Virus record (IMG/VR): IMGVR_UViG_2698536559_000020
Source of the DNA: a virus
Taxonomy: Duplodnaviria > Heunggongvirae > Uroviricota > Caudoviricetes
DNA: 47,472 nucleotides
Strand: one strand, 5' to 3'
Part shown: positions 3,044 to 40,595 of the stretch, in pieces
How positions within the stretch are numbered: position 1 is the stretch's first letter
Layout: each line of letters opens with the position of its first letter
Notes under the pieces: model-generated
Databases searched by the model: none
Told to the model about the DNA's origin: nothing
The model's input: only the letters and a program-made list of their open reading frames with translations
Position numbers and translations under genes: made by a program

Positions 3044-3283
3044 TCACTGGTTGCCTCCTTTACGGATCTGCGCTGCGATGCACGAAAAAAAAGACTTTCG
3101 CGTATGACTGTTAAGAGCTGGCGCGAACGCCGCGTTAAGAACGGCAGCATCACAGCCGTCATCGATATAGAGCGCAATTTTTTTCTCCAGGCGTGCTTTG
3201 GCTTCCTGCAACTGCATACCCCGGCACGCACGCGGGATATACTCAGCAATTTGAGCGATAGATTTTTCGTTCTGTTTAAACAT
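3044..3283 (-). CDS. hypothetical early protein (79 aa)
   Basis: ORF in operon context. Confidence 0.4.
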   Translation of the reverse strand: MFKQNEKSIAQIAEYIPRACRGMQLQEAKARLEKKIALYIDDGCDAAVLNAAFAPALNSHTRKSFFSCIAAQIRKGGNQ

Positions 3284-13534: not shown

Positions 13535-14287
13535 ATGAACCTTGAGGCCTTACCAAAATATTACTCCCCAAAATCTCCAAAATTGAGCGATGACGCACTG
13601 GCGACAGGCTCGGGTGGTTTAACGATTACGGATGTGATGGCTGCGCAGGGGATGGTGCAGTCAAAAGCACCGCTTGGGTTTGCTTTATTCCTGGCAAAAG
13701 TTGGTGTTCAGGATCCTCAGTTTGCGATTGAAGGTCTGCTCAATTACGCGATGGCACTGGATAACCCGACATTGAACAAATTGAGTGAAGAAACCCGGTT
13801 ACAGATCATCCCTTACCTTGTGAATTTTGCCTTTGCTGATTATTCCAGGTCTGCGGCAAGTAAGGCTCGCTGTGAGCATTGTGCAGGTACGGGATTTCAT
13901 AATGTATTGCGCGAAGTGGTGAAACACTCCAGAAGCGGGGAGTCTGTTATCAAGGAAGAGTGGGTGAAGGAATTATGTCAGCATTGTCATGGTAAGGGAG
14001 AAGTCAGCACAGCGTGCAGAGGGTGTAAGGGTAAAGGTATTGTCCTGGATGAAAAAAGGACCCGGCTTCATGGCACGCCTGTTTATAAGATTTGTGGGCG
14101 TTGCAATGGAAACCGGTTTAGCCGTTTACCAACCACACTGGCGCGGCATCATGTCCAGAAGCTGATACCAGATCTGACGGATTATCAGTGGTACAAAGGA
14201 TATGCAGATGTCATTGATAAACTGGTTACAAAGTGCTGGCAGGAAGAAGCATATGCTGAGACACAATTGAGAAAAGTGACAAGATAA
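13535..14287 (+). CDS. late-gene antiterminator Q (QuuQ-like)
   Basis: CxxC…CxxC zinc-finger region, size 250 aa, immediately upstream of late promoter, terminator and lysis region. Confidence 0.7.
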   Translation: MNLEALPKYYSPKSPKLSDDALATGSGGLTITDVMAAQGMVQSKAPLGFALFLAKVGVQDPQFAIEGLLNYAMALDNPTLNKLSEETRLQIIPYLVNFAFADYSRSAASKARCEHCAGTGFHNVLREVVKHSRSGESVIKEEWVKELCQHCHGKGEVSTACRGCKGKGIVLDEKRTRLHGTPVYKICGRCNGNRFSRLPTTLARHHVQKLIPDLTDYQWYKGYADVIDKLVTKCWQEEAYAETQLRKVTR

Positions 14288-14318
14288 ATGATTTTCACCG
14301 AAGATGGCGACATGATGC

Positions 14319-14346
14319 TTGCATTTTCAAAAAATATGGATAAAAT
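14319..14346 (+). promoter_or_regulatory. late promoter PR'-like (TTGCAT, 16 nt, TAAAAT)
   Basis: consensus-like hexamers directly downstream of Q and about 45 nt upstream of a strong terminator. Confidence 0.45.
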
Positions 14347-14393
14347 TTACCAAACGATGGGCTTTGTATGTCTACCGTTGATAAGATTTAAGA

Positions 14394-14418
14394 ACCCGCC
14401 ACTGAGCGGGTTTTTTTG
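14394..14418 (+). terminator. tR'-like rho-independent terminator (Q antitermination target)
   Basis: CCCGC-loop-GCGGG followed by T7. Confidence 0.65.
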
Positions 14419-14673
14419 TGCCCGAAAATAAGCGTGGTGCTTTAAGCTTGCTGCAGGCTGTGAGTACAGGTCGTTCTGTTTGCAGTTTTTCGATAAGAAC
14501 AATAAATCAGATGGTAATTGAAATGAAAGCTGGTTGTTAATTTCGCGTTGCGTTTTCTTTGTTTTCTGAATAATGAAACATACTAGGACATTTATGTTCA
14601 TTAATTTTGTTCTTATTGAGTATCTCTGAGTTATTCGTATCATTCTGCCGTGCCATCGCAATGATGCGATGCG

Positions 14674-14749
14674 GGCCCTTTAGCTCAGTGGTCAGAGCGA
14701 GCGACTCATAATCGCCAGGTCGCTGGTTCAAGTCCAGCAAGGGCCACCA
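14674..14749 (+). tRNA. tRNA with CAU anticodon, ileX-like (tRNA-Ile2 lysidine type, or tRNA-Met)
   Basis: cloverleaf deduced by hand; anticodon loop CTCATAA; close to E. coli ileX sequence; CCA encoded. Confidence 0.75.
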
Positions 14750-14750
14750 G

Positions 14751-14827
14751 CCGTCACTAGCTCATCGGGACAGAGCATCAACCTTCTAAGTTGATTGTGC
14801 GGGGTTCAAGTCCCCGGTGACGGTCCA
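14751..14827 (+). tRNA. tRNA-Arg (UCU)
   Basis: perfect 7 bp acceptor stem CCGTCAC/GTGACGG, anticodon loop CTTCTAA, T-loop TTCAAGT, CCA encoded. Confidence 0.7.
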
Positions 14828-14829
14828 GT

Positions 14830-14905
<76 letters not shown>

Positions 14906-14908
14906 TAT

Positions 14909-14983
<75 letters not shown>

Positions 14984-15310: not shown

Positions 15311-15805
15311 ATGCGTAATGTGTCGTTTGACGTTCGCTATTCCTTTCATCTTGAAACGATGATGGCGACCCTGTACCGAAGGCTGGAATATCTGCTTTAT
15401 TTTATTCTGATGCTGGCTGGTGGGCTTGTTCTGGCAGATGTGGGTAATACCGCGTTACAGGGGCTGGTGGTCATCATTGTTGCTTTCACTGCGCTCACAC
15501 TTCGTCCCGCAAGAAATGCGCTGCTGTGTGAATCTCAGGCCGCAAGATACCGTGAGCTCATGCATGATTTTGAGTTTCATCCGGATGAAACAGAGTTTCC
15601 CGATATGGATGAAATTGAGCTGCATGACAACACCGCAATTGGCCTGCTGAGGAATGCTGCATACAAGAGAACGCTGATAGTGCTCGGGTATTCACAGGAG
15701 GCAAATGCCATTCATCTCACAATGATGGAGAAAATCGCAGCATGGTTTGCCGGTGATCTGCCGGAAGAGTGTGTGCCCGCTGGTGCAGTGGATAACGAAA
15801 TCTGA
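15311..15805 (+). CDS. hypothetical two-transmembrane-helix protein (moron between tRNAs and lysis cassette)
   Basis: two hydrophobic helices near the N-terminus followed by an acidic soluble domain; occupies the locus where lambdoid phages carry toxin/moron genes. Confidence 0.5.
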   Translation: MRNVSFDVRYSFHLETMMATLYRRLEYLLYFILMLAGGLVLADVGNTALQGLVVIIVAFTALTLRPARNALLCESQAARYRELMHDFEFHPDETEFPDMDEIELHDNTAIGLLRNAAYKRTLIVLGYSQEANAIHLTMMEKIAAWFAGDLPEECVPAGAVDNEI

Positions 15806-15911
15806 AAATGCCTGTTTTCAGTTGAGAGATACGCTCCGGAAGACCAAACTGATTAACGCAAAGGTAATACATTTATTGTTTTGAAAATCCGATCAGCACG
15901 TTTGCTTTTCT

Positions 15912-15964
15912 GCCAGCTCCCCCAGAGCTGGCTTTTTTTGAGGTCTGCTCCGGCAGGCTTTTTT
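15912..15964 (+). terminator. tandem rho-independent terminators upstream of the Rha cassette
   Basis: GCCAGCTC…GAGCTGGC then T7; then GGTCTGCTCCGGCAGGC then T6. Confidence 0.5.
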
Positions 15965-16104
15965 ATTTCCGCGCCACGCCCGGCGCATATCAAAAACCAC
16001 AGAGCCTTACAGAAATGAGCTTCGGAGAAACACCGTAATAAGCGGCGGCTTCTCTGTGGGCGGTGTTTCTGGGCGACGAGGCTCATTTCTGTAAGGAGAG
16101 CGTG

Positions 16105-16656
16105 ATGAACTATCCAACCGTTGTTAACGGCATTGATTTTCGCGATCTTGTTTTTGTGACAGGCAACGAGCCAGTGACGGATACCCGAAAGGTTGCCGTA
16201 GCATTTGGTAAAGAACATAAAGATGTATTGCGGAAAACAAGGGCCGTCATTCAACAATGCTCAAAAGAATTTGCAGAGCGCAATTTTGCGCTTTGCTATG
16301 AAAACAATGAGTTACAGAACGGTAAACCACAGCCTGTATATCGAATGACAAAAGACGGTTGGACGATGTTGGTATTTGGTTTTACGGGGAAGGCCGCAAT
16401 GACCTTTAAGGAAGCGTACATCCAGGCTTTCAACTGGATGGCGGAGCTTATTCGGCAGGGAGTGGCAAATCTTGAGGCTGAACGCAATGCCGTCATGCTG
16501 GAATACATGAAAGAGAAGGATGTTGCCAGTATGTCGGGGCGTTTGCTTAACCGCTGGGGAAGAGTGAAAAAGCCACAGCTTCAGGCAAGGATCGAACAAC
16601 TTGAGCAGCGAGGGCAGATATCCCTGCCCGGTATCGACAGCGTATTAACACACTGA
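16105..16656 (+). CDS. Rha-family phage regulatory protein (antirepressor-like)
   Basis: …TDTRKVAVAFGKEHKDVLRKTRAV… Rha signature; AAGGAG SD 6 nt upstream. Confidence 0.75.
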   Translation: MNYPTVVNGIDFRDLVFVTGNEPVTDTRKVAVAFGKEHKDVLRKTRAVIQQCSKEFAERNFALCYENNELQNGKPQPVYRMTKDGWTMLVFGFTGKAAMTFKEAYIQAFNWMAELIRQGVANLEAERNAVMLEYMKEKDVASMSGRLLNRWGRVKKPQLQARIEQLEQRGQISLPGIDSVLTH

Positions 16657-16680
16657 GGTCTGCTACGGCAGGCTTTTTTG
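16655..16680 (+). terminator. rho-independent terminator, near-identical copy of the hairpin at 15941-15964
   Basis: GAGGTCTGCTACGGCAGGC then T6 immediately after the Rha stop codon. Confidence 0.55.
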
Positions 16681-16873
16681 TGTCGGCACACAGCAGCGCA
16701 ATAGTCACTGTTAGTTTGTTCCCGGGAGGGATAAATGAAAATTAATTCATGTTTTTTTCATGAAAAAGGTTTTTTTGTGGCGTGCGATCGCCAGGATGAC
16801 TTCTTCCTCAGTTTCGGGCCTGATATTGGCGTGGGGCGTTTCTCATTCATTCGCCCCGCGCGGGAGCATGGCG

Positions 16874-17368
16874 TTACCGCAGGGCTTTTTCAATTAACGG
16901 AAGTGCTGCCGGAATGTTCATTACCCCCTGAGTCAGTAATTGCAGGGTCAAATGTTTTATGGCGTCTGACGGAAGCTCTCGAAGTTTTGAAATCAGTCCC
17001 TTCTTCTGATCTTCAGGAATATTGGCAATCCGGATTATGTCCTCTATAGCAGTCAGGGTGCTGTGATGAAATTTTATGGTCTGAACTTTCAGTATGGCGC
17101 TCAGACCACCATCATTTCGCAGAAAATCAATGCCATTGATTGTGATTGCTGGCATCCAGACATGGCTGTATCCGCATGAGTCAAGTCGTAATCCACTGGT
17201 TATAAGACCATGACCTTCCAGATATAAAAGATTAGCAATCGCTGTTTTGTTGTCAGGGAATACCGATAACAGGCGCTTTAACTGCTCATTGTTTCTTATT
17301 TTGTCGGGGAATATGTCGTTGAGAGACGATAAGAGCTCGAGTTGCGTTTGACGATCGAACTTGTCCAT
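16874..17368 (-). CDS. hypothetical protein (164 aa), reverse-strand moron inside the late region
   Basis: AT-rich, protein-like helical sequence; the overlapping + strand ORF 16735..17049 looks less protein-like. Confidence 0.45.
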   Translation of the reverse strand: MDKFDRQTQLELLSSLNDIFPDKIRNNEQLKRLLSVFPDNKTAIANLLYLEGHGLITSGLRLDSCGYSHVWMPAITINGIDFLRNDGGLSAILKVQTIKFHHSTLTAIEDIIRIANIPEDQKKGLISKLRELPSDAIKHLTLQLLTQGVMNIPAALPLIEKALR

Positions 17369-17506
17369 GATGAGTGCTTGCTTTTGATAGTGTTAATTCA
17401 TGAAGTTTAACTCCGCCAAAGTTATTTATTCAACCGCCCTTCAGGGCGGGCAGAAGCCTTCACATCGACACTGAGGTCGCCATCCGGCGGCCTTTTTTGT
17501 ACCCGA

Positions 17507-27379: not shown

Positions 27380-28236
27380 ATCAACTTGCACTGTTAAGCC
27401 AGCGCCTGCTGAACACGCCGCTGGCCCTTCATCCGCGAAAAGCGGAAATCATTGTTACGGCACTGGCAGAACGACTCGGGATCACCCGGATAAAAACGGG
27501 GGCCTGGTATGACGATGATGAAGACGATTTCTGCCGTCCCGCCCGTGAAAGCGGGTACGACATTCTGGAGGGGATCGCCGTTATTCCCGTGCACGGCACC
27601 CTGGTACAGAAACTGGGGATGCTGCGGCCTTACTCCGGCATGACGGGGTATGACGGCATCCGGCGAAATTTTCTGACGGCGCTTAACGACCCTGATGTGA
27701 AGGGCATCTGTCTTGATATCGATTCCCCCGGCGGAGAAGTGGCCGGGTGTTTTGATCTGGTGGACACGATTTTTGCCTGTCGCGGGCAGAAACCGGTGCA
27801 CGCCATTCTCTCGGAGTCGGCGTACTCGGCGGCCTATGCCCTTGCCAGCGCCGCCGACCGGATCCTGGTCCCCCGCACGGGTGGCGTGGGGTCCGTTGGT
27901 GTCATCTATGTGCACTGTGACATGTCGCGCCAGATGAAGGATGAAGGGCTGAACGTGACCATCATCACCTGTGGCAGCCGGAAGGCGGAGACCAGTCCGC
28001 TGCGTCCGCTGAGTGAGGCGGCACAGGCAGCACTTCAGGCGGACATTGACGCCGCAGGTACGCTTTTTATCGAAACCGTTGCCCGCAACCGTGGCATCAG
28101 CGCGGATGCGGTGCGTGCACTTGAGGCCCGGACGTTACGGGCTGACGAAGGGGTGCAGGCAGGTCTTGCCGACGATGTGATGTCACCGGATGAGGCCTTT
28201 TCTTTTCTGTTAAAGGAGACAGCAAACAATGCGTAA
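27376..28236 (+). CDS. head maturation protease (lambda gpC / S49 family)
   Basis: …LRPYSGMTGYDGI…DIDSPGGEVAG… matches lambda C. Confidence 0.8.
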   Translation: MNQLALLSQRLLNTPLALHPRKAEIIVTALAERLGITRIKTGAWYDDDEDDFCRPARESGYDILEGIAVIPVHGTLVQKLGMLRPYSGMTGYDGIRRNFLTALNDPDVKGICLDIDSPGGEVAGCFDLVDTIFACRGQKPVHAILSESAYSAAYALASAADRILVPRTGGVGSVGVIYVHCDMSRQMKDEGLNVTIITCGSRKAETSPLRPLSEAAQAALQADIDAAGTLFIETVARNRGISADAVRALEARTLRADEGVQAGLADDVMSPDEAFSFLLKETANNA

Positions 28237-28801
28237 ATTTTCTTTCATGCACCTGGTAGGCATGGGCGGTCGTTCGCGAATGGATGACGATCCGGAGGAC
28301 AAACGCGACGACGAGAATGCGGAGGAGGACGAGGACCGCCGCGAAAGTCGTAAGGCACGCTCCCGTGCGGATGACGATAACGACGACGGGCAGGCGGAGG
28401 AGGACGAGGACCGCCGCGAAAGCCGCAAGGCGCGCTCCCGTGCGGATGATGACGATAACGACGACGATGAAAACGCAGAAGACGACAATGACGAAGAAAA
28501 GGCCCGCGCCAGCGAACGTCATCGCTGCGCAGCCATCTTCGCCACGCCGTATGCAGCGAAAAATCCGGCCCTTGCCGCAGAGCTGGCCTTCAACACCCGC
28601 ATGAGTGTGAAACAGGCCAGAGCGGTGATGAAAGCGGCGGTGGCAGGAGGCGCAGGTCAGAAAGGTGGACTGACTGCCCGTATGCAGTATGCACCACAGC
28701 CGGGAACCGGACGTGATGTCCGCCCTGCACCGACGGAGGCGCACGCGATGGCACAGCACGCCATGAAACTGTACAACGAGGCTATGGGGGGTAAAGCATA
28801 A
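28229..28801 (+). CDS. scaffolding protein (Nu3-like) with acidic internal direct repeat
   Basis: C-terminal segment resembles lambda Nu3; two copies of EEDEDRRESRKARSRADDD. Confidence 0.55.
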   Translation: MRKFSFMHLVGMGGRSRMDDDPEDKRDDENAEEDEDRRESRKARSRADDDNDDGQAEEDEDRRESRKARSRADDDDNDDDENAEDDNDEEKARASERHRCAAIFATPYAAKNPALAAELAFNTRMSVKQARAVMKAAVAGGAGQKGGLTARMQYAPQPGTGRDVRPAPTEAHAMAQHAMKLYNEAMGGKA

Positions 28802-29202
28802 TGAGCACATACGGAAACAACCCGTCGGCACCGGGTTACTGGTCGGACGCATACCAGCCGGACCAGCTGCTGTGCGGACCGCTTCAGGTGGTCACAAAAA
28901 CCGTGACCATCACCGGAGGAGAGGTATACCTGCGCGGTACGGTGCTGGGGCGCATCACGGAAAGCGGCGCGTACACCCTCTGCACACAGGGGACGGGGGT
29001 GACGGACGGCAGCGAAACGCCGGTGGCGATTCTGGCTGACCTGGCGGATTCTTCCTCCGGTGATGTGCTGGCTGGCGTCTACCTGATGGGTGAGTTCAAC
29101 GCAAACCGGGTCATTTTTGATGAAAGCTGGGACATTGACGATCTGTGCGTGGCGCTGGAGAAAGAGAAAATCTTTCTGCGCAACCCGGTCACGGTGCCCT
29201 GA
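28801..29202 (+). CDS. head decoration protein (lambda gpD-like)
   Basis: size and position between scaffold and major capsid. Confidence 0.6.
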   Translation: MSTYGNNPSAPGYWSDAYQPDQLLCGPLQVVTKTVTITGGEVYLRGTVLGRITESGAYTLCTQGTGVTDGSETPVAILADLADSSSGDVLAGVYLMGEFNANRVIFDESWDIDDLCVALEKEKIFLRNPVTVP

Positions 29203-29257
29203 TCCCCACTGAGAGCCTGACAGCCGCATGATGCGGCTTTTTTTATGGAATTTTTTC

Positions 29258-30313
29258 ATGAGCGAAAAAGACTTTAATCTGCTGTACGACACCGCGTTTC
29301 TGGCGCAGGTGGTGCCGAACCTGTTTGTGGCCCAGAACTGGCTGCTGGACAGTTTCTTCCCGAATATCGTGCTGAGCGATACGGAGTCCGTGGCCATTGA
29401 CGTGGAAGTGGGCGCACGCCGTATGTCGCCGTTCTGCTCCCCTCTGGTGGAAGGACCAATGGTTGAGGCCCTGCCGTATCAGACCAACATCTTCAAACCG
29501 GCCTACATCAAGGACAAGCGCGTTCCCGATTTGCTTCGTCCGGTGCGCCGTATGATCGGCGAACGCCTGGGCGGGCGTGAGTACACGCCAGCAGAGCGTG
29601 CAATGCTGAACCTCCAGTACGAGATGGCCGACCAGATCAACATGCTGAACCGTCGTCTTGAATGGATGGCGGCACAGGCGCTCCAGTACGCGAAGGTGAC
29701 GATAGCCGGTGAGGGCTACCCGACCACGGAAGTGGATTTTCGTCGTGACAGTGACCTGACGGTGACGCTGAGCGGTGATGATGTCTGGCCTTCTGAGGAA
29801 AGCAGCACGATCCCGACCACCTGCCTGGAGGCGTGGGCGACGCTGATGCTGAAAAAATCCGGTGCGTACCCGACCGAGGTGATTTTCACGCCGTCGGCCT
29901 GGAAGGCGTTCATGAACGACAGCTTCATTCGTGAGAACGCCATCAACATGCCCGCCCTGAACCCGACCAGCAACGTGGTGAACCCGGGGACGCAGATCAA
30001 CACCGGTGCGGTGTACAAGGGCAAATGGGGTAACTTCAACCTCTGGCTGTATAACGACTGGTTCATCGATCCGGATGACGGAACCGAAAAACCGATGCTG
30101 GATGACGGCAACGTCATTCTGACCGGAGCAGCCCTGATGGGAACCCGCGCGTTCGCCTGCATCATGGATCCGGCGTTTAATTACGGCCAGATGGCCTATG
30201 CCCCGAAAATGTGGGATCAGCAGGATCCGGCACAGCGTTTCCTGATGATGCAGTCGGCACCGATTGTCATCCCGTCCCGTGTCAATGCGTGCCTGTGCGC
30301 GTCGGTGGTGTGA
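29258..30313 (+). CDS. major capsid protein (lambda gpE family)
   Basis: C-terminal …GTRAFACIMDPAF…DPAQRFLMMQSAPIV… aligns with lambda E. Confidence 0.8.
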   Translation: MSEKDFNLLYDTAFLAQVVPNLFVAQNWLLDSFFPNIVLSDTESVAIDVEVGARRMSPFCSPLVEGPMVEALPYQTNIFKPAYIKDKRVPDLLRPVRRMIGERLGGREYTPAERAMLNLQYEMADQINMLNRRLEWMAAQALQYAKVTIAGEGYPTTEVDFRRDSDLTVTLSGDDVWPSEESSTIPTTCLEAWATLMLKKSGAYPTEVIFTPSAWKAFMNDSFIRENAINMPALNPTSNVVNPGTQINTGAVYKGKWGNFNLWLYNDWFIDPDDGTEKPMLDDGNVILTGAALMGTRAFACIMDPAFNYGQMAYAPKMWDQQDPAQRFLMMQSAPIVIPSRVNACLCASVV

Positions 30314-39440: not shown

Positions 39441-40595
39441 ATGCCGTTTGAACGCCCCGGATTAAGTGAGCTGCGGGAGAAAAGCCGGTCGTATGTGACC
39501 GGTCAGCTGGATGAGGCGGGGGCTCTGCTGCGGTTTTCCACGCCGGGGATTCTGGCGGATGCCGTGGCGGGCATGACGCATCTGCATTACGGCTACCTTG
39601 ACTGGATAGCGCAGCAGTGCACACCGGCCACGGCCACCGGGGAATATCTGGCGGCGTGGGGTGCGCTGAAGGGTATCATCCGCAAGGCCGCAGAGGCCGC
39701 GGCCTGTGACGAGGTGCAGTTCACGGGAACCGTCGGCAGCACCGTGAGTGCGGGGGCGGTACTGAACCGTGCGGACGGGTATCAGTACACGCTGGATGAG
39801 GATGTGAGCATTGACAGTGACGGCAGCGGTACGGGGAGTATTACCGCCGTGCTGCCGGACCCGACGGATGACAGCAGCGGCGGTGGCGACGACGGTAACG
39901 CGGATGCCGGTACGACACTGACACCGGATGTCACCTGGTCCGGTATTGACTCAACGGTGACGATGGTGACGGCTGCCACCGGCGGCAGTGACACTGAGGA
40001 AGAGGAGACGTACCGTCAGCGTGTGCTGTATGCGTACCAGAACCCGCCTCAGGGCGGTGCGGCGGCGGACTATGTGCAGTGGGCACTGGAGGTTCCCGGC
40101 GTGACCCGGGCGTGGTGCGTGAACCGTGCGCTGGGGTTCGGAACGGTGGGTGTCTACATCATGACGGACGGTGACGACGAGGACAACGCCGGGGGCTTTC
40201 CTGACGGCACGGACGGCGTGGCAACGGATGAGGACTGGACAGACCGGAAAGCCACGGGGGTACAGCTCACGGTGGCGGACTATATCCGCGATTACCAGCC
40301 GGTCACGGCGGTGGTGTATGTGATGTCGCCGGTGGCCAGAAGCATTGATTTTGAAATACAGGGGCTGAGTGATGCCACGGCGGCACTGAGGGCACAGGTG
40401 GAGAGCGCCATCAGCGAGGTGCTGTACAACGTGGATGAACTGGACGGCAGCGGGGTGATTAATCTTTCTGACCTGTATTACGCCATTGCGGACATTGAGG
40501 GGACAGACGGCTTCATTCTGGTGTCTCCTGACAGCAACATCACGCTGTCGCAGGGAGAGCTGCCGGTCACCGGCAGCATCACATGGGCAACATGA
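39441..40595 (+). CDS. baseplate J-like protein (Mu gp47 family)
   Basis: size and order, acidic Gly/Asp-rich central insert. Confidence 0.65.
   Translation: MPFERPGLSELREKSRSYVTGQLDEAGALLRFSTPGILADAVAGMTHLHYGYLDWIAQQCTPATATGEYLAAWGALKGIIRKAAEAAACDEVQFTGTVGSTVSAGAVLNRADGYQYTLDEDVSIDSDGSGTGSITAVLPDPTDDSSGGGDDGNADAGTTLTPDVTWSGIDSTVTMVTAATGGSDTEEEETYRQRVLYAYQNPPQGGAAADYVQWALEVPGVTRAWCVNRALGFGTVGVYIMTDGDDEDNAGGFPDGTDGVATDEDWTDRKATGVQLTVADYIRDYQPVTAVVYVMSPVARSIDFEIQGLSDATAALRAQVESAISEVLYNVDELDGSGVINLSDLYYAIADIEGTDGFILVSPDSNITLSQGELPVTGSITWAT

Follow-up and report, generated by a model that had tools for sequence, protein, structure and literature searches.

A putative translational-lock leader RNA upstream of Rha and other accessory genes of temperate enterobacterial phages

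What controls a prophage Rha gene that lies between two nearly identical terminators, behind a leader able to fold over its own ribosome-binding site? The question is raised by a 47,472-nucleotide stretch of tailed-phage DNA (IMG/VR record IMGVR_UViG_2698536559_000020), referred to below as the window. Its Rha gene (16105-16656, ATG at 16105; all features described here are on the plus strand) encodes a protein of 183 aa with Phage_pRha and ORF11CD3 domains. An earlier note on this DNA had likened the leader to the antisense-RNA or attenuator control of antirepressor genes in P1/P22-type immunity regions. Our analysis leads elsewhere: the window leader belongs to a family of structured leader RNAs that is widespread in temperate enterobacterial phages and had not been catalogued before. 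With a probability of roughly 60%, we propose that this structured 5′ leader of ~150 nt, located between a terminator and the start codon of a late-operon accessory gene, acts as a translational lock in cis.

Structure of the leader upstream of Rha

The module spans 15955-16107, where covariance model R1 is matched over model positions 1-152 (132.7 bits, E=1.4e-32); the window sequence was part of the R1 seed alignment, and independent copies score 50-130 bits. It is the sole full copy in the window. Its 5′ part forms a small hairpin, P0 (15971-15986, GCGCC-ACGCCC-GGCGC), the loop of which (K, 15977-15981, CGCCC) is complementary to a distal segment, K′ (16071-16075, GGGCG). Segment A (15997-16004, CCACAGAG) flanks the 5′ arm of a long stem, B (16005-16024), whose leading CC pairs with the GG of the ribosome-binding site, and this arm is followed by the 5′ arm of an inner stem, C (16026-16035). 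The apical loop of 25 nt contains A′ (16052-16059, CTCTGTGG), the complement of A. Beyond it are the 3′ arm of the inner stem, C′ (16061-16070), then K′ in an asymmetric internal loop between C′ and B′, and lastly the 3′ arm of the long stem, B′ (16077-16096). B′ overlaps the ribosome-binding site, such that the first four bases (AAGG) of the Shine-Dalgarno sequence AAGGAG (16093-16098) are paired in B:B′.

Several elements of this structure had been recognized in the earlier note. The inverted repeat with one mismatch is real, although the positions given for it were off by 1-2 nt; each arm is 20 nt long, and the single non-complementary position is a G-U pair in the plus-strand RNA. The nested hairpin is equally real (C:C′, a perfect inverted repeat of 10 nt), and the 3′ arm does enter AAGGAG, of which B′ covers AAGG. 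The leader RNA folds at -54 kcal/mol (z = -4.6), with none of 200 shuffled sequences as stable, and P0, K:K′, A:A′, B:B′ and C:C′ are each able to form in the window, the duplex energies being -12.2 (A), -8.3 (K), -32.7 (B) and -13.9 kcal/mol (C). The suggestion of an attenuator did not hold up: no U-run follows the long hairpin, which is therefore not a transcription attenuator.

Conservation and covariation across phages

The first hint of a family came from compensatory changes between the window leader and a copy in a Stx phage. A pattern scan of viral contigs yielded at least 120 matching stretches, and R1 gave 105 hits in 100 loci retrieved with the Rha protein alone and, among the matches listed, 115 hits in the pattern-scan loci, many of which carry 2-3 copies. 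The module is found upstream of nearly all enterobacterial Rha homologues sampled, with hosts from Escherichia through to Xenorhabdus, Morganella and Gilliamella. The genes after it encode TerB, KilA-N, Rha, AntA, P22_AR_N, HNH or T5orf172 proteins, and it stands in front of differing genes in Edwardsiella, Providencia and E. coli phages. One Stx phage examined has two copies; a search of the K-12 Qin prophage returned none. The start codon follows the module at a fixed spacing in more than 150 copies. Mean identity in the module columns is 50% and none of them is invariant, while the CC opposite the ribosome-binding site's GG is near-invariant among the copies. No Rfam 15 family overlaps the module, either in the window (gathering threshold and E<=10) or in 20 module-bearing loci (gathering threshold), and we found no description of this leader in the literature on Rha, antirepressor leaders and morons.

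Across 151 distinct copies, all five pairings (B:B′, C:C′, P0, K:K′ and A:A′) covary. The covariation score of the whole structure is 0.365 vs. 0.147 in shuffles, 0 of 500 of which score as high, a significance that these controls overstate because the module sequences are related; structures slid along the alignment reach at most 0.126. For P0, 98% of cells are paired, with double changes in 4/4 pairs, and for C:C′ the figures are 92% and covariation in 10/10 pairs. The B:B′ columns are 72% paired in the model alignment, for which indels are partly responsible, and TerB-type copies have bulges and mismatches in this stem. The earlier note's claim that the leader sequesters the ribosome-binding site is nevertheless borne out, in that the pairing is kept by compensatory changes in ~150 diverged copies.

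The note had missed two long-range pairings, K:K′ and A:A′, as well as the family-wide spread. Together with C:C′, both are among the strongest signals in an all-against-all mutual-information scan. K:K′ forms at least 5 contiguous Watson-Crick pairs in 142/151 copies, in 29 sequence variants, and A:A′ at least 6 contiguous pairs in 143/151, in ~39 variants. An alignment-free test on the 151 copies agrees, with mean runs of 5.55 for K:K′ (3.39 when permuted) and 6.93 for A:A′ (4.77 when permuted). Since K:K′ covaries, transcripts must start upstream of P0 and P0 belongs to the RNA. A:A′ crosses both stems, which implies either a compact double pseudoknot or a switch between two folds.

The strand on which the structure is maintained bears directly on antisense control, in which a C4/c4-a1b1-type or sar-type RNA would regulate the antirepressor gene. 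The sense fold is more stable than the antisense fold in 127/151 copies, as judged by per-sequence folding; column counts of G-U vs. A-C are blurred by alignment noise in B:B′. A consensus scan of the minus strand (15800-16300) found neither a promoter nor a terminator, although weak promoters could escape such a scan. The Rfam search for C4-like RNAs that the earlier note had proposed returned no C4 or c4-a1b1 over 15900-16110, at the gathering threshold or at E<=10, and among C4 (RF01695), c4-a1b1 (RF03163) and isrK (RF01394) no model overlaps the leader even at E<=10. The only isrK hit in the window is sub-threshold (14.5 bits, E=7.7) and lies at 14321-14416, adjoining Q and 1.6 kb upstream. 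What speaks for such control is that the class and position of the gene resemble P1 immI, and that the equivalent Q-to-antirepressor spacer of Gifsy-1, our positive control, contains a true C4-type element (C4 at 69 bits, c4-a1b1 at 48 bits, and isrK, all at gathering score). Given the strand preference and the absence of these matches and signals from the leader, we regard antisense control as highly improbable, and the note's likeness to C4 of P1 or sar of P22 is not sustained.

What P1/P7 c4 and P22 sar share with the leader, as predicted here, is the outcome: RNA occludes the ribosome-binding site ahead of an antirepressor-type gene. In c4 a processed upstream RNA does the blocking and in sar a convergent antisense transcript, whereas in the window leader it is the contiguous 5′ arm B that pairs with the site, and the loop pairings K:K′ and A:A′ leave the site untouched; neither sequence nor structure is homologous. 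The IsrK/orf45/anrP system of Gifsy-1 (PMC4825925) is similar in that it has an antirepressor-like gene in the late region near Q, immediately after a terminator, and a read-through transcript is kept translationally silent by a stable leader fold with alternatives, as we predict for the leader here. However, the Gifsy-1 spacer matches Rfam isrK, c4-a1b1 and C4 while the window leader matches none, and Gifsy-1 activation depends on a short RNA acting in trans together with a coupled reading frame upstream, neither of which is evident in the window.

Terminators and the boundaries of the cassette

The upstream unit ends in T1 (15912-15938), an intrinsic-terminator-like hairpin with U7 (-15.3 kcal/mol), which directly adjoins the 5′ side of T2 (~15940-15964), a hairpin of sequence GAGGTCTGCTCCGGCAGGC with U6 (-12.9 kcal/mol) at the 5′ edge of the Rha cassette. 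A second copy, T2′ (~16655-16680, U6, -12.8 kcal/mol), begins within the Rha stop codon, which is the TGA inside T2′. A related terminator, T3 (17472-17505, ACTGAGGTCGCC...), is a weaker third copy of T2, and T3-type terminators also precede leader modules in other phages (L043, L048). Folding energies of all four lie between -12 and -16 kcal/mol, and a run of U6-8 comes after each. T2 and T2′ are identical at 25/26 bases, with similarity reaching 34 nt at 88% identity, and TGAGGTCTGCT(C/A)CGGCAGGCTTTTTT occurs exactly twice in the window (15939-15964 and 16654-16679; expected 0, from 100 shuffles). The duplicated hairpin flanking Rha, as first described in the note, is thus confirmed.

The note had also read this duplication as a sign of insertion or duplication at a terminator, which is supported in part. 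Four other viral contigs (L248-L250, L252) have the homologous upstream unit, closed there too by the T1-T2 tandem, and in them different sequence starts right after the T2 U-run; because other DNA follows T1-T2 there, the left junction of the Rha cassette lies just past T2. Within the family, 79 of 99 non-redundant copies have a terminator 15-60 nt upstream of the module, and this share of ~80% makes a terminator the usual cassette boundary. Exact duplication on both flanks is rare, being found in only 3/74 Rha cassettes. If a circular cassette entered by a single crossover, one terminator would be expected as a direct repeat on either side of it, and the near-identical terminator 3′ of Rha is best explained as a lineage-specific trace of recombination or insertion at T2. 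Besides two full-length viral contigs, three identical E. coli genomes were the only sequences found to have both flanks of the cassette. A search for a relative with an empty site, i.e. with the flanks adjacent, found none, and two further contigs break off at their ends.

These features raise the possibility that the module is chiefly a portable junction at the DNA level, like the promoter-stem-loop cassettes documented in T4-type phages (PMC2839356), with shared sequence allowing cargo to be swapped and RNA structure being secondary. In phages 2851 and ECP1 the P22-type leader before KilA-N genes is 95% identical, and Klebsiella phage RothC has it at 81% identity over a homing-endonuclease gene. 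Cassettes occupy varied sites (after Q and tRNAs in the window, after Rz in P22 and Stx phages, between tail genes in a Providencia phage), tandem module copies are common, and the T2/T2′ repeat fits insertion by a single crossover. Such a role leaves unexplained the dozens of compensatory double changes in five helices, which recombination cannot account for because it needs identity rather than complementarity, and the near-invariant CC opposite the ribosome-binding site. We therefore doubt that a DNA junction is the main function; the DNA and RNA roles are, however, mutually compatible.

The promoter-stem-loops (PeSL) resemble the module in being short conserved regulatory units repeated before variable non-essential genes and likely substrates for modular shuffling, small-circle insertion included. 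A repeated module at variable genes, with breakpoints at the module, is likewise what we find, but the promoter that defines PeSL is absent: PeSL combines an early promoter with a terminator stem-loop in virulent phages, whereas the module here joins a terminator to a predicted translational leader in temperate phages and covaries at the RNA level. The cassette also recalls the morons of lambdoid phages, a concept of Juhala and Hendrix (cited in PMC4104026), in which an accessory gene and a downstream terminator occupy Q-to-lysis or other late-operon sites of varying position. A predicted factor-independent terminator, T2′, does lie downstream of Rha. Classic morons differ in carrying their own promoter, which was not found for the Rha cassette in the window, and a shared structured leader is no part of the moron definition.

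The idea of a miniature transposon was rejected because every copy of the element adjoins a start codon and because its arms show covariation rather than plain decay.

Proposed action of the leader

A consensus scan found no sigma-70-like site between T2 and the Rha ATG, and we suggest that transcription from the Q-dependent late promoter reads through into the leader. A promoter inside the leader, at the conserved ATATCA and TTTCAC motifs, was rejected, as these lack key -10 bases, the scan found no site there, and the covariation of K:K′ also puts P0 within the transcript. In the computed ground state, the first bases of the ribosome-binding site would be paired at the base of the 20-bp B:B′ stem, which continues into the 10-bp C:C′ stem. 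Covariation supports two further contacts: K:K′ joins the P0 loop to the long stem's internal loop, and A:A′ joins the apical loop to the 8 nt directly 5′ to that stem. Judging from leader geometry, the module most likely serves as a lock on Rha-type, antirepressor-like and other cassette genes, which would stay silent unless the leader refolds or is cut.

How the lock might be opened is a matter for more tentative proposals. In the window, the closed fold is computed at -67.5 kcal/mol vs. -43.7 kcal/mol for the best nested fold with A:A′ forced, and this difference of ~24 kcal/mol makes a thermodynamic switch implausible without a helper or a cut. The leader might be unlocked by a transient co-transcriptional three-way junction, closed by A:A′ before B′ exists, or by an endonuclease that removes the 5′ arm. 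When the A-to-A′ segment is folded alone, A:A′ closes a three-way junction in most of 75 homologues, while RNAalifold gave no structure for the A-to-A′ sub-alignment, the inner hairpins H1 and H2 coming from single-sequence folds only. A hammerhead-like core for the junction was rejected, since the CUGANGA pattern does not occur and Rfam gave no hit.

A helper is the premise of a sensor, in which a ligand, protein or trans RNA would stabilize the A:A′ and K:K′ fold (three-way junction, B looped out) and so expose the ribosome-binding site. The architecture does resemble an ON-type translational riboswitch, with A:A′ as closing helix, C′ and B′ as expression platform and, in most homologues, a three-way junction, and in the IsrK system a short RNA activates a silent antirepressor message (PMC4825925). 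Apart from the stability of the closed fold, however, junction and loop sequences are poorly conserved (a weak argument against a riboswitch), the cargo genes share no metabolic theme, and no partner RNA was found. We thus consider a sensor improbable.

A cut, on the other hand, is suggested by phage P22. Its genome (BK000583) contains a copy of the module at 39492-39646, upstream of rha (114.5 bits). Small-RNA sequencing of infected Salmonella has identified an 89-nt RNA, P22F, which ranks second of ten P22 small RNAs (2054 reads per million), is present in vesicles and has identical copies in some other phages (PMC13397905, June 2026). By sequence matching, P22F corresponds to 39550-39638, the 3′ two-thirds of the P22 module, which indicates that the two are the same element. 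That paper gives P22F as a read cluster without an assigned function and, in the part accessible to us, describes neither the upstream half (P0, A and the 5′ half of B) nor the pseudoknot pairings nor the spread across gene families. The P22F reads show sense transcription and a 5′ end within the B arm.

The leader may accordingly be mainly a processing site, with the 20-30 bp duplex as the target of RNase III or the purine/A-rich part of B as that of RNase E; the cassette message would be separated from the long late transcript and its ribosome-binding site freed, with the pseudoknots placing or timing the cut. B:B′ and C:C′ together make a near-perfect duplex of ~30 bp that contains an asymmetric internal loop, and B:B′, with 20 bp and one G-U, provides the approximately two turns of uninterrupted duplex of an RNase III substrate. 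The reported P22F is abundant and discrete, its 5′ end lies within the B arm, and cutting the window leader at the corresponding point, between 16012 and 16013, is computed to leave the ribosome-binding site unpaired. The ends of P22F nevertheless do not show the 2-nt stagger of canonical RNase III: the 5′ end lies in the duplex, while the 3′ end is 13 nt beyond the expected position. This 3′ end falls between the ribosome-binding site and the AUG, so that the message would be inactivated, not activated, unless the end reflects library size selection. The bulges and mismatches in B:B′ of TerB-type copies also argue against a dedicated duplex substrate. Processing as the main role is possible, but we do not favour it.

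Conversely, the abundance of P22F and its reported presence in vesicles could mean that the region encodes an independent trans-acting small RNA whose place before Rha is incidental. There is no promoter-like site upstream of it and no terminator at its 3′ end, and the element is always joined to a start codon at fixed spacing (>150 copies), which renders this explanation very unlikely.

The proposed cis-acting lock has precedents in its putative working mode. The leaders of the MS2 maturation gene and of hok mRNA are kinetically controlled, and those of lambda N and T7 0.3 are processed by RNase III, the sites in the lambda N leader and T7 early mRNA being precedents for cutting here. In each, long-range pairing closes the ribosome-binding site at equilibrium and expression occurs via a transient fold or a cut; none is homologous to the window leader. 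Combining these elements, we tentatively put forward a speculative scheme that we hold to be possible rather than probable: a new family of double-pseudoknotted leaders, in which A:A′ and K:K′ would form a metastable three-way junction on the nascent late transcript and leave each transcript a brief, single chance of translation until closure or cutting of the 30-bp lock. It would provide plug-in control of potentially harmful cassette genes (antirepressors, KilA-N, nucleases, TerB) and, in Stx phages, gate two antirepressor-type genes possibly affecting induction.

Taken together, these results extend the short list of cis-regulatory RNAs in phages by one well-supported family, which has two pseudoknot contacts. 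The module offers a concrete, testable structure for the orphan RNA P22F and corrects start-codon annotation, e.g. that of P22 rha, whose annotated start falls inside the leader. It also suggests how accessory genes might move between temperate phages, each travelling together with its leader and terminator as one unit. Prophage induction, which drives toxin release in Shiga-toxin phages, can be triggered or cross-triggered by antirepressor-like genes, and the putative shared RNA lock, hitherto uncatalogued, stands before such genes twice in one Stx phage and once in P22.

Structure of the Rha leader

The window is an E. coli prophage, 100% identical over this region to three complete genomes. 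From left to right, lambdoid early genes are followed by the Q antiterminator (13535-14287), a short promoter-terminator unit, four tandem tRNA genes (14674-14983), a membrane ORF of 164 aa (15311-15805) and the Rha gene (16105-16656), after which come a minus-strand ORF, two more ORFs and the lysis genes. On the + strand, the Q-to-holin interval carries several terminator-like hairpins which, together with the accessory genes, are typical of a Q-dependent late operon carrying added genes, and late-operon read-through is the probable source of the Rha transcript.

Directly past Q (14315-14420), there is a good sigma-70-type promoter, judged by eye (TTGCAT, 16-nt spacer, TAAAAT), and about 60 nt beyond it a strong terminator (AACCCGCCACTGAGCGGGTTTTTTT, -13.5 kcal/mol). 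These are presumably the late promoter and its first terminator, which would yield a short 6S-like RNA; Rfam returned only sub-threshold matches there (isrK, E=7.7; Trp_leader, E=0.16). The first tRNA is Met (CAT anticodon) according to ARAGORN and Ile according to RefSeq, and the others are Arg(TCT), Thr(TGT) and Gly(TCC). In NZ_CP027550 (L002, locus 27896-29681), which holds the same prophage, RefSeq flags a frameshift in the large terminase gene and lists two more genes as pseudogenes; the window prophage may be defective.

The earlier note described a near-perfect inverted repeat in the leader, running into the Shine-Dalgarno sequence and enclosing a nested hairpin, and all three features were recovered. 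The long stem B:B' joins 16005-16024 to 16077-16096, its single non-complementary position being a G-U in the + strand RNA; the inner stem C:C' is a perfect 10-mer (16026-16035 with 16061-16070); and the 3′ arm terminates in the AAGG of the AAGGAG ribosome-binding site, upstream of the start ATG at 16105. The leader RNA has a predicted fold of -54 kcal/mol (z = -4.6), and such a leader would lock translation of Rha. R1, a covariance model of the module (152 positions, from 98 non-redundant copies), finds one full copy in the window, at 15955-16107 (132.7 bits). Elsewhere, at 3045-3099 on the minus strand, a U-run is followed by a hairpin (CGTGC-ATCGCA-GCGCA) resembling P0, the small upstream hairpin of the module, and then by AAGGAGG and a GTG start. 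Its match to R1 is confined to the first 36 and the last 13 positions (E about 1), and the terminator-plus-P0 portion may occur alone.

Covariation and alternative folds

Five pairings in the module covary. In the R1 alignment of Rha-derived copies (76 distinct rows), the whole-structure covariation score is 0.365 vs. 0.147 for shuffled alignments, a value reached by 0 of 500 shuffles, and controls with partners slid by 1-3 columns score at most 0.126. Double changes occur at 4/4 pairs of P0 (98% of cells paired), 10/10 of C:C' (92%) and 17/18 of B:B' (72%, with indel noise). They also occur at 6/8 pairs (85% of cells paired) of A:A', a pairing not included in R1, which links 15997-16004 (CCACAGAG), the 8 nt directly preceding the stem, with 16052-16059 (CTCTGTGG) in the apical loop. 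One A:A' position is AU in 37 rows, GC in 15, CG in 8 and UA in 3, and another is CG in 28, UA in 21, AU in 8 and GU in 6. When every column pair was scanned for mutual information, C:C' and A:A' ranked top, and an additional contact emerged between the P0 loop and the internal loop separating C' from B' (K:K').

Both loop contacts were also examined without an alignment in 151 distinct copies, with loops permuted among copies as the control. In 142 copies, K:K' comprises an unbroken run of 5 or more Watson-Crick pairs, formed by 29 sequence variants: CGCCC/GGGCG in the window and, elsewhere, TCTCAC, CCGCAAT, TTCACA, TTCGTAC, TTCCGC and CCGAATG, each with its complement. Its mean run is 5.55 vs. 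3.39 when permuted (maximum 3.66). For A:A', at least 6 pairs form in 143 copies (about 39 variants), with a mean run of 6.93 vs. 4.77. Of the 151 copies, 127 have a better fold on the sense than on the antisense strand, and the GG of the ribosome-binding site is paired with a near-invariant CC directly past A.

A:A' crosses each of the two stems, B:B' and C:C'. If these are stacked, about 30 bp separate A, at the base, from A', at the tip, which by geometric reasoning, rather than computation, keeps them from pairing. Two readings remain. The RNA may alternate between a closed fold, in which B:B' buries the ribosome-binding site, and an A:A' fold; or the inner arm would fold back along B:B' into a compact double pseudoknot, placing C:C' and A:A' (about 18-20 bp) beside the 20-bp B:B'. 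When the A-to-A' segment is folded alone, A:A' closes a three-way junction in most of 75 homologues, its two hairpins deriving from B/C and from C/loop sequences in single-sequence predictions; such a junction would be an expected intermediate on the nascent chain. In the window, the closed fold is predicted at -67.5 kcal/mol vs. -43.7 kcal/mol for the best nested fold with A:A' forced. Since the closed fold is far more stable, any role of an alternative fold would be kinetic, assisted or subsequent to a cut, and release of the lock may be kinetic or processing-based.

Distribution of the module and its terminators

In Stx2 phages, the Rha gene is 86% identical and homology begins at window position 15983, thus covering the leader, which has the same fold (z = -4.6) with compensatory differences, e.g. 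CTTACAG/CTGTAAG against CTTTCAG/CTGAAAG. A leader-only query revealed the module ahead of other genes: one for a 283-aa protein in an Edwardsiella phage (a close relative, from the pattern set described next, has an AntA domain), an antirepressor gene sited between tape-measure and tail genes in a Providencia phage, a BRO-N gene in E. coli cM8a and a TerB gene in E. coli 214-4. A degenerate pattern scan of viral contigs matched at least 120 stretches; among the matches listed, the proteins that follow are TerB, KilA-N+P63C, Rha+ORF11CD3, AntA, P22_AR_N+ORF11CD3, HNH_3+AP2, T5orf172 and one unassigned family. For a leader-independent sample, loci were fetched by Rha protein alone: R1 gave 105 matches on the first 100, and the module abuts the start codon in nearly all enterobacterial Rha homologues sampled (hosts include Rosenbergiella, Xenorhabdus, Morganella, Providencia, Erwinia, Pantoea, Yersinia and Gilliamella) and is absent from the distant non-enterobacterial ones sampled. 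Several loci have two or three copies; one Stx phage has a copy before an antirepressor gene (between R and Rz) and another before Rha.

Two observations concern TerB-type cassettes. In PPompW phages (LC567818 and others; about 15650-15715), the module match ends at about position 62; the annotation has ISEc20, an IS110-family element, at this break, suggesting that the element inserted into the module. Downstream of such cassettes, at a distance of a few hundred bases, is the small RNA STnc100 (Rfam RF02076; L043, 3408-3620; L011, 2852-3018; L009), in keeping with the reported linkage between TerB genes and the prophage-encoded small RNAs PasA, PasC and PasD (bioRxiv 10.64898/2026.05.13.724894).

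The duplicated terminator proposed to bracket Rha is borne out: the 26-nt TGAGGTCTGCTNCGGCAGGCTTTTTT occurs only at 15939-15964 (T2) and 16654-16679 (T2'), and no shuffle matched it. With a strict detector, 79 of 99 non-redundant copies show a terminator-like hairpin and T-run at 15-60 nt before P0, so T2 is a usual 5′ boundary. In four other viral contigs, a homologous upstream unit closes with the tandem of T2 and the preceding terminator T1 (15912-15938), with unrelated DNA directly past the U-run, which puts the left-hand edge of the Rha cassette no more than a few bases from T2. Sharing of the T2' kind is rare: in 3 of 74 distinct Rha cassettes, the zone of the upstream terminator and the flank 3′ of the gene have at least 14 identical bases in common. 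The bracket probably arose by recombination at a terminator; a direct repeat would be the expected product of integrating a circular cassette by a single crossover, and circles of this kind have been described for T4-type regulatory cassettes (PMC2839356). Among the E. coli complete genomes and viral contigs searched, no relative was found in which the two flanks adjoin.

Directly past T2', the stretch 16680-16735 contains GTGTCGGCACACAGCAGCGCAATAG, like the P0 region of other copies (e.g. CTGCGCATTCACAGCGCAATTAC), and may be the stump of a second module. Beyond it lie GGGAGGG and an unannotated 104-aa + strand ORF (16735-17049), which overlaps the annotated minus-strand ORF 16874-17368. In Gifsy-1 (L253, 33278-33480, minus strand), the terminator at the end of the Hfq-binding small RNA IsrJ (100 bits) is nearly the same as pre-module terminators of other enterobacterial copies (GCCTCGCCATCGTGCGGGG, as in L138, Erwinia). 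Directly past it is a degenerate module copy lacking the inner arm (29 bits, E=9e-6), and therefore some pre-module terminators may be the 3′ ends of known small RNAs.

The P22 copy and known antirepressor RNAs

The P22 module (BK000583, L246; 39492-39646, 114.5 bits) lies between the lysis genes and rha in a region with no annotated feature. The annotated rha start (orf201, 39575) falls within it; homologues and R1 place the start at 39644, making the protein 23 residues shorter. According to a June 2026 small-RNA survey of P22-infected Salmonella, ten phage small RNAs account for 99.8% of P22-aligned reads; one of them, P22F (89 nt, function given as unknown), reaches 2054 reads per million in infected cells, behind P22E only (PMC13397905). 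Its printed sequence matches BK000583 39550-39638. P22F thus begins mid-B arm, spans C, the apical loop, C', K', B' and the ribosome-binding site, and stops 5-6 nt short of the AUG. This shows that the sense strand of the module is transcribed during lytic growth, that the leader, whole or in part, builds up as a discrete, stable and abundant RNA, and that P22F has a 5′ end within the sequestering arm. After a cut at the equivalent window position, the ribosome-binding site is predicted to be unpaired. The 3′ end is off the site expected of a canonical RNase III double cut.

The analogy to C4-type antisense control drawn in the earlier note was a fair lead which did not hold: the leader stretch matches none of the c4-a1b1, isrK and C4 models, a consensus scan gave no antisense promoter, and the ribosome-binding site is paired by a cis arm. 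No Rfam 15 family covers the module, either in the window or in 20 other module-bearing loci. By comparison, the Gifsy-1 spacer between Q and the antirepressor matches all three models at gathering score. These matches fall on the published isrK/orf45 region (L253, 34131-34329, minus strand), those of c4-a1b1 and isrK overlapping and that of C4 just downstream, and the “orf45” stretch is therefore a C4-type RNA. Experiments on Gifsy-1 revealed a translationally silent read-through message that is switched on by the short IsrK RNA (PMC4825925). The window leader would share with this system an RNA-level block, and it has likewise an antirepressor-type gene past a terminator, but without a model match and with cis-arm pairing it is not a member of the C4/isrK family. 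In a 2025 review on small RNAs of phages, antirepressor control is represented by sar, c4, IsrK and 24B_1, and there is no leader of this type.

Leaders that act in cis to occlude a ribosome-binding site are a kind already known. The present one is of greater interest than the earlier note gave it, since it represents a widespread RNA family with pseudoknot contacts, and it is the family itself that is new.
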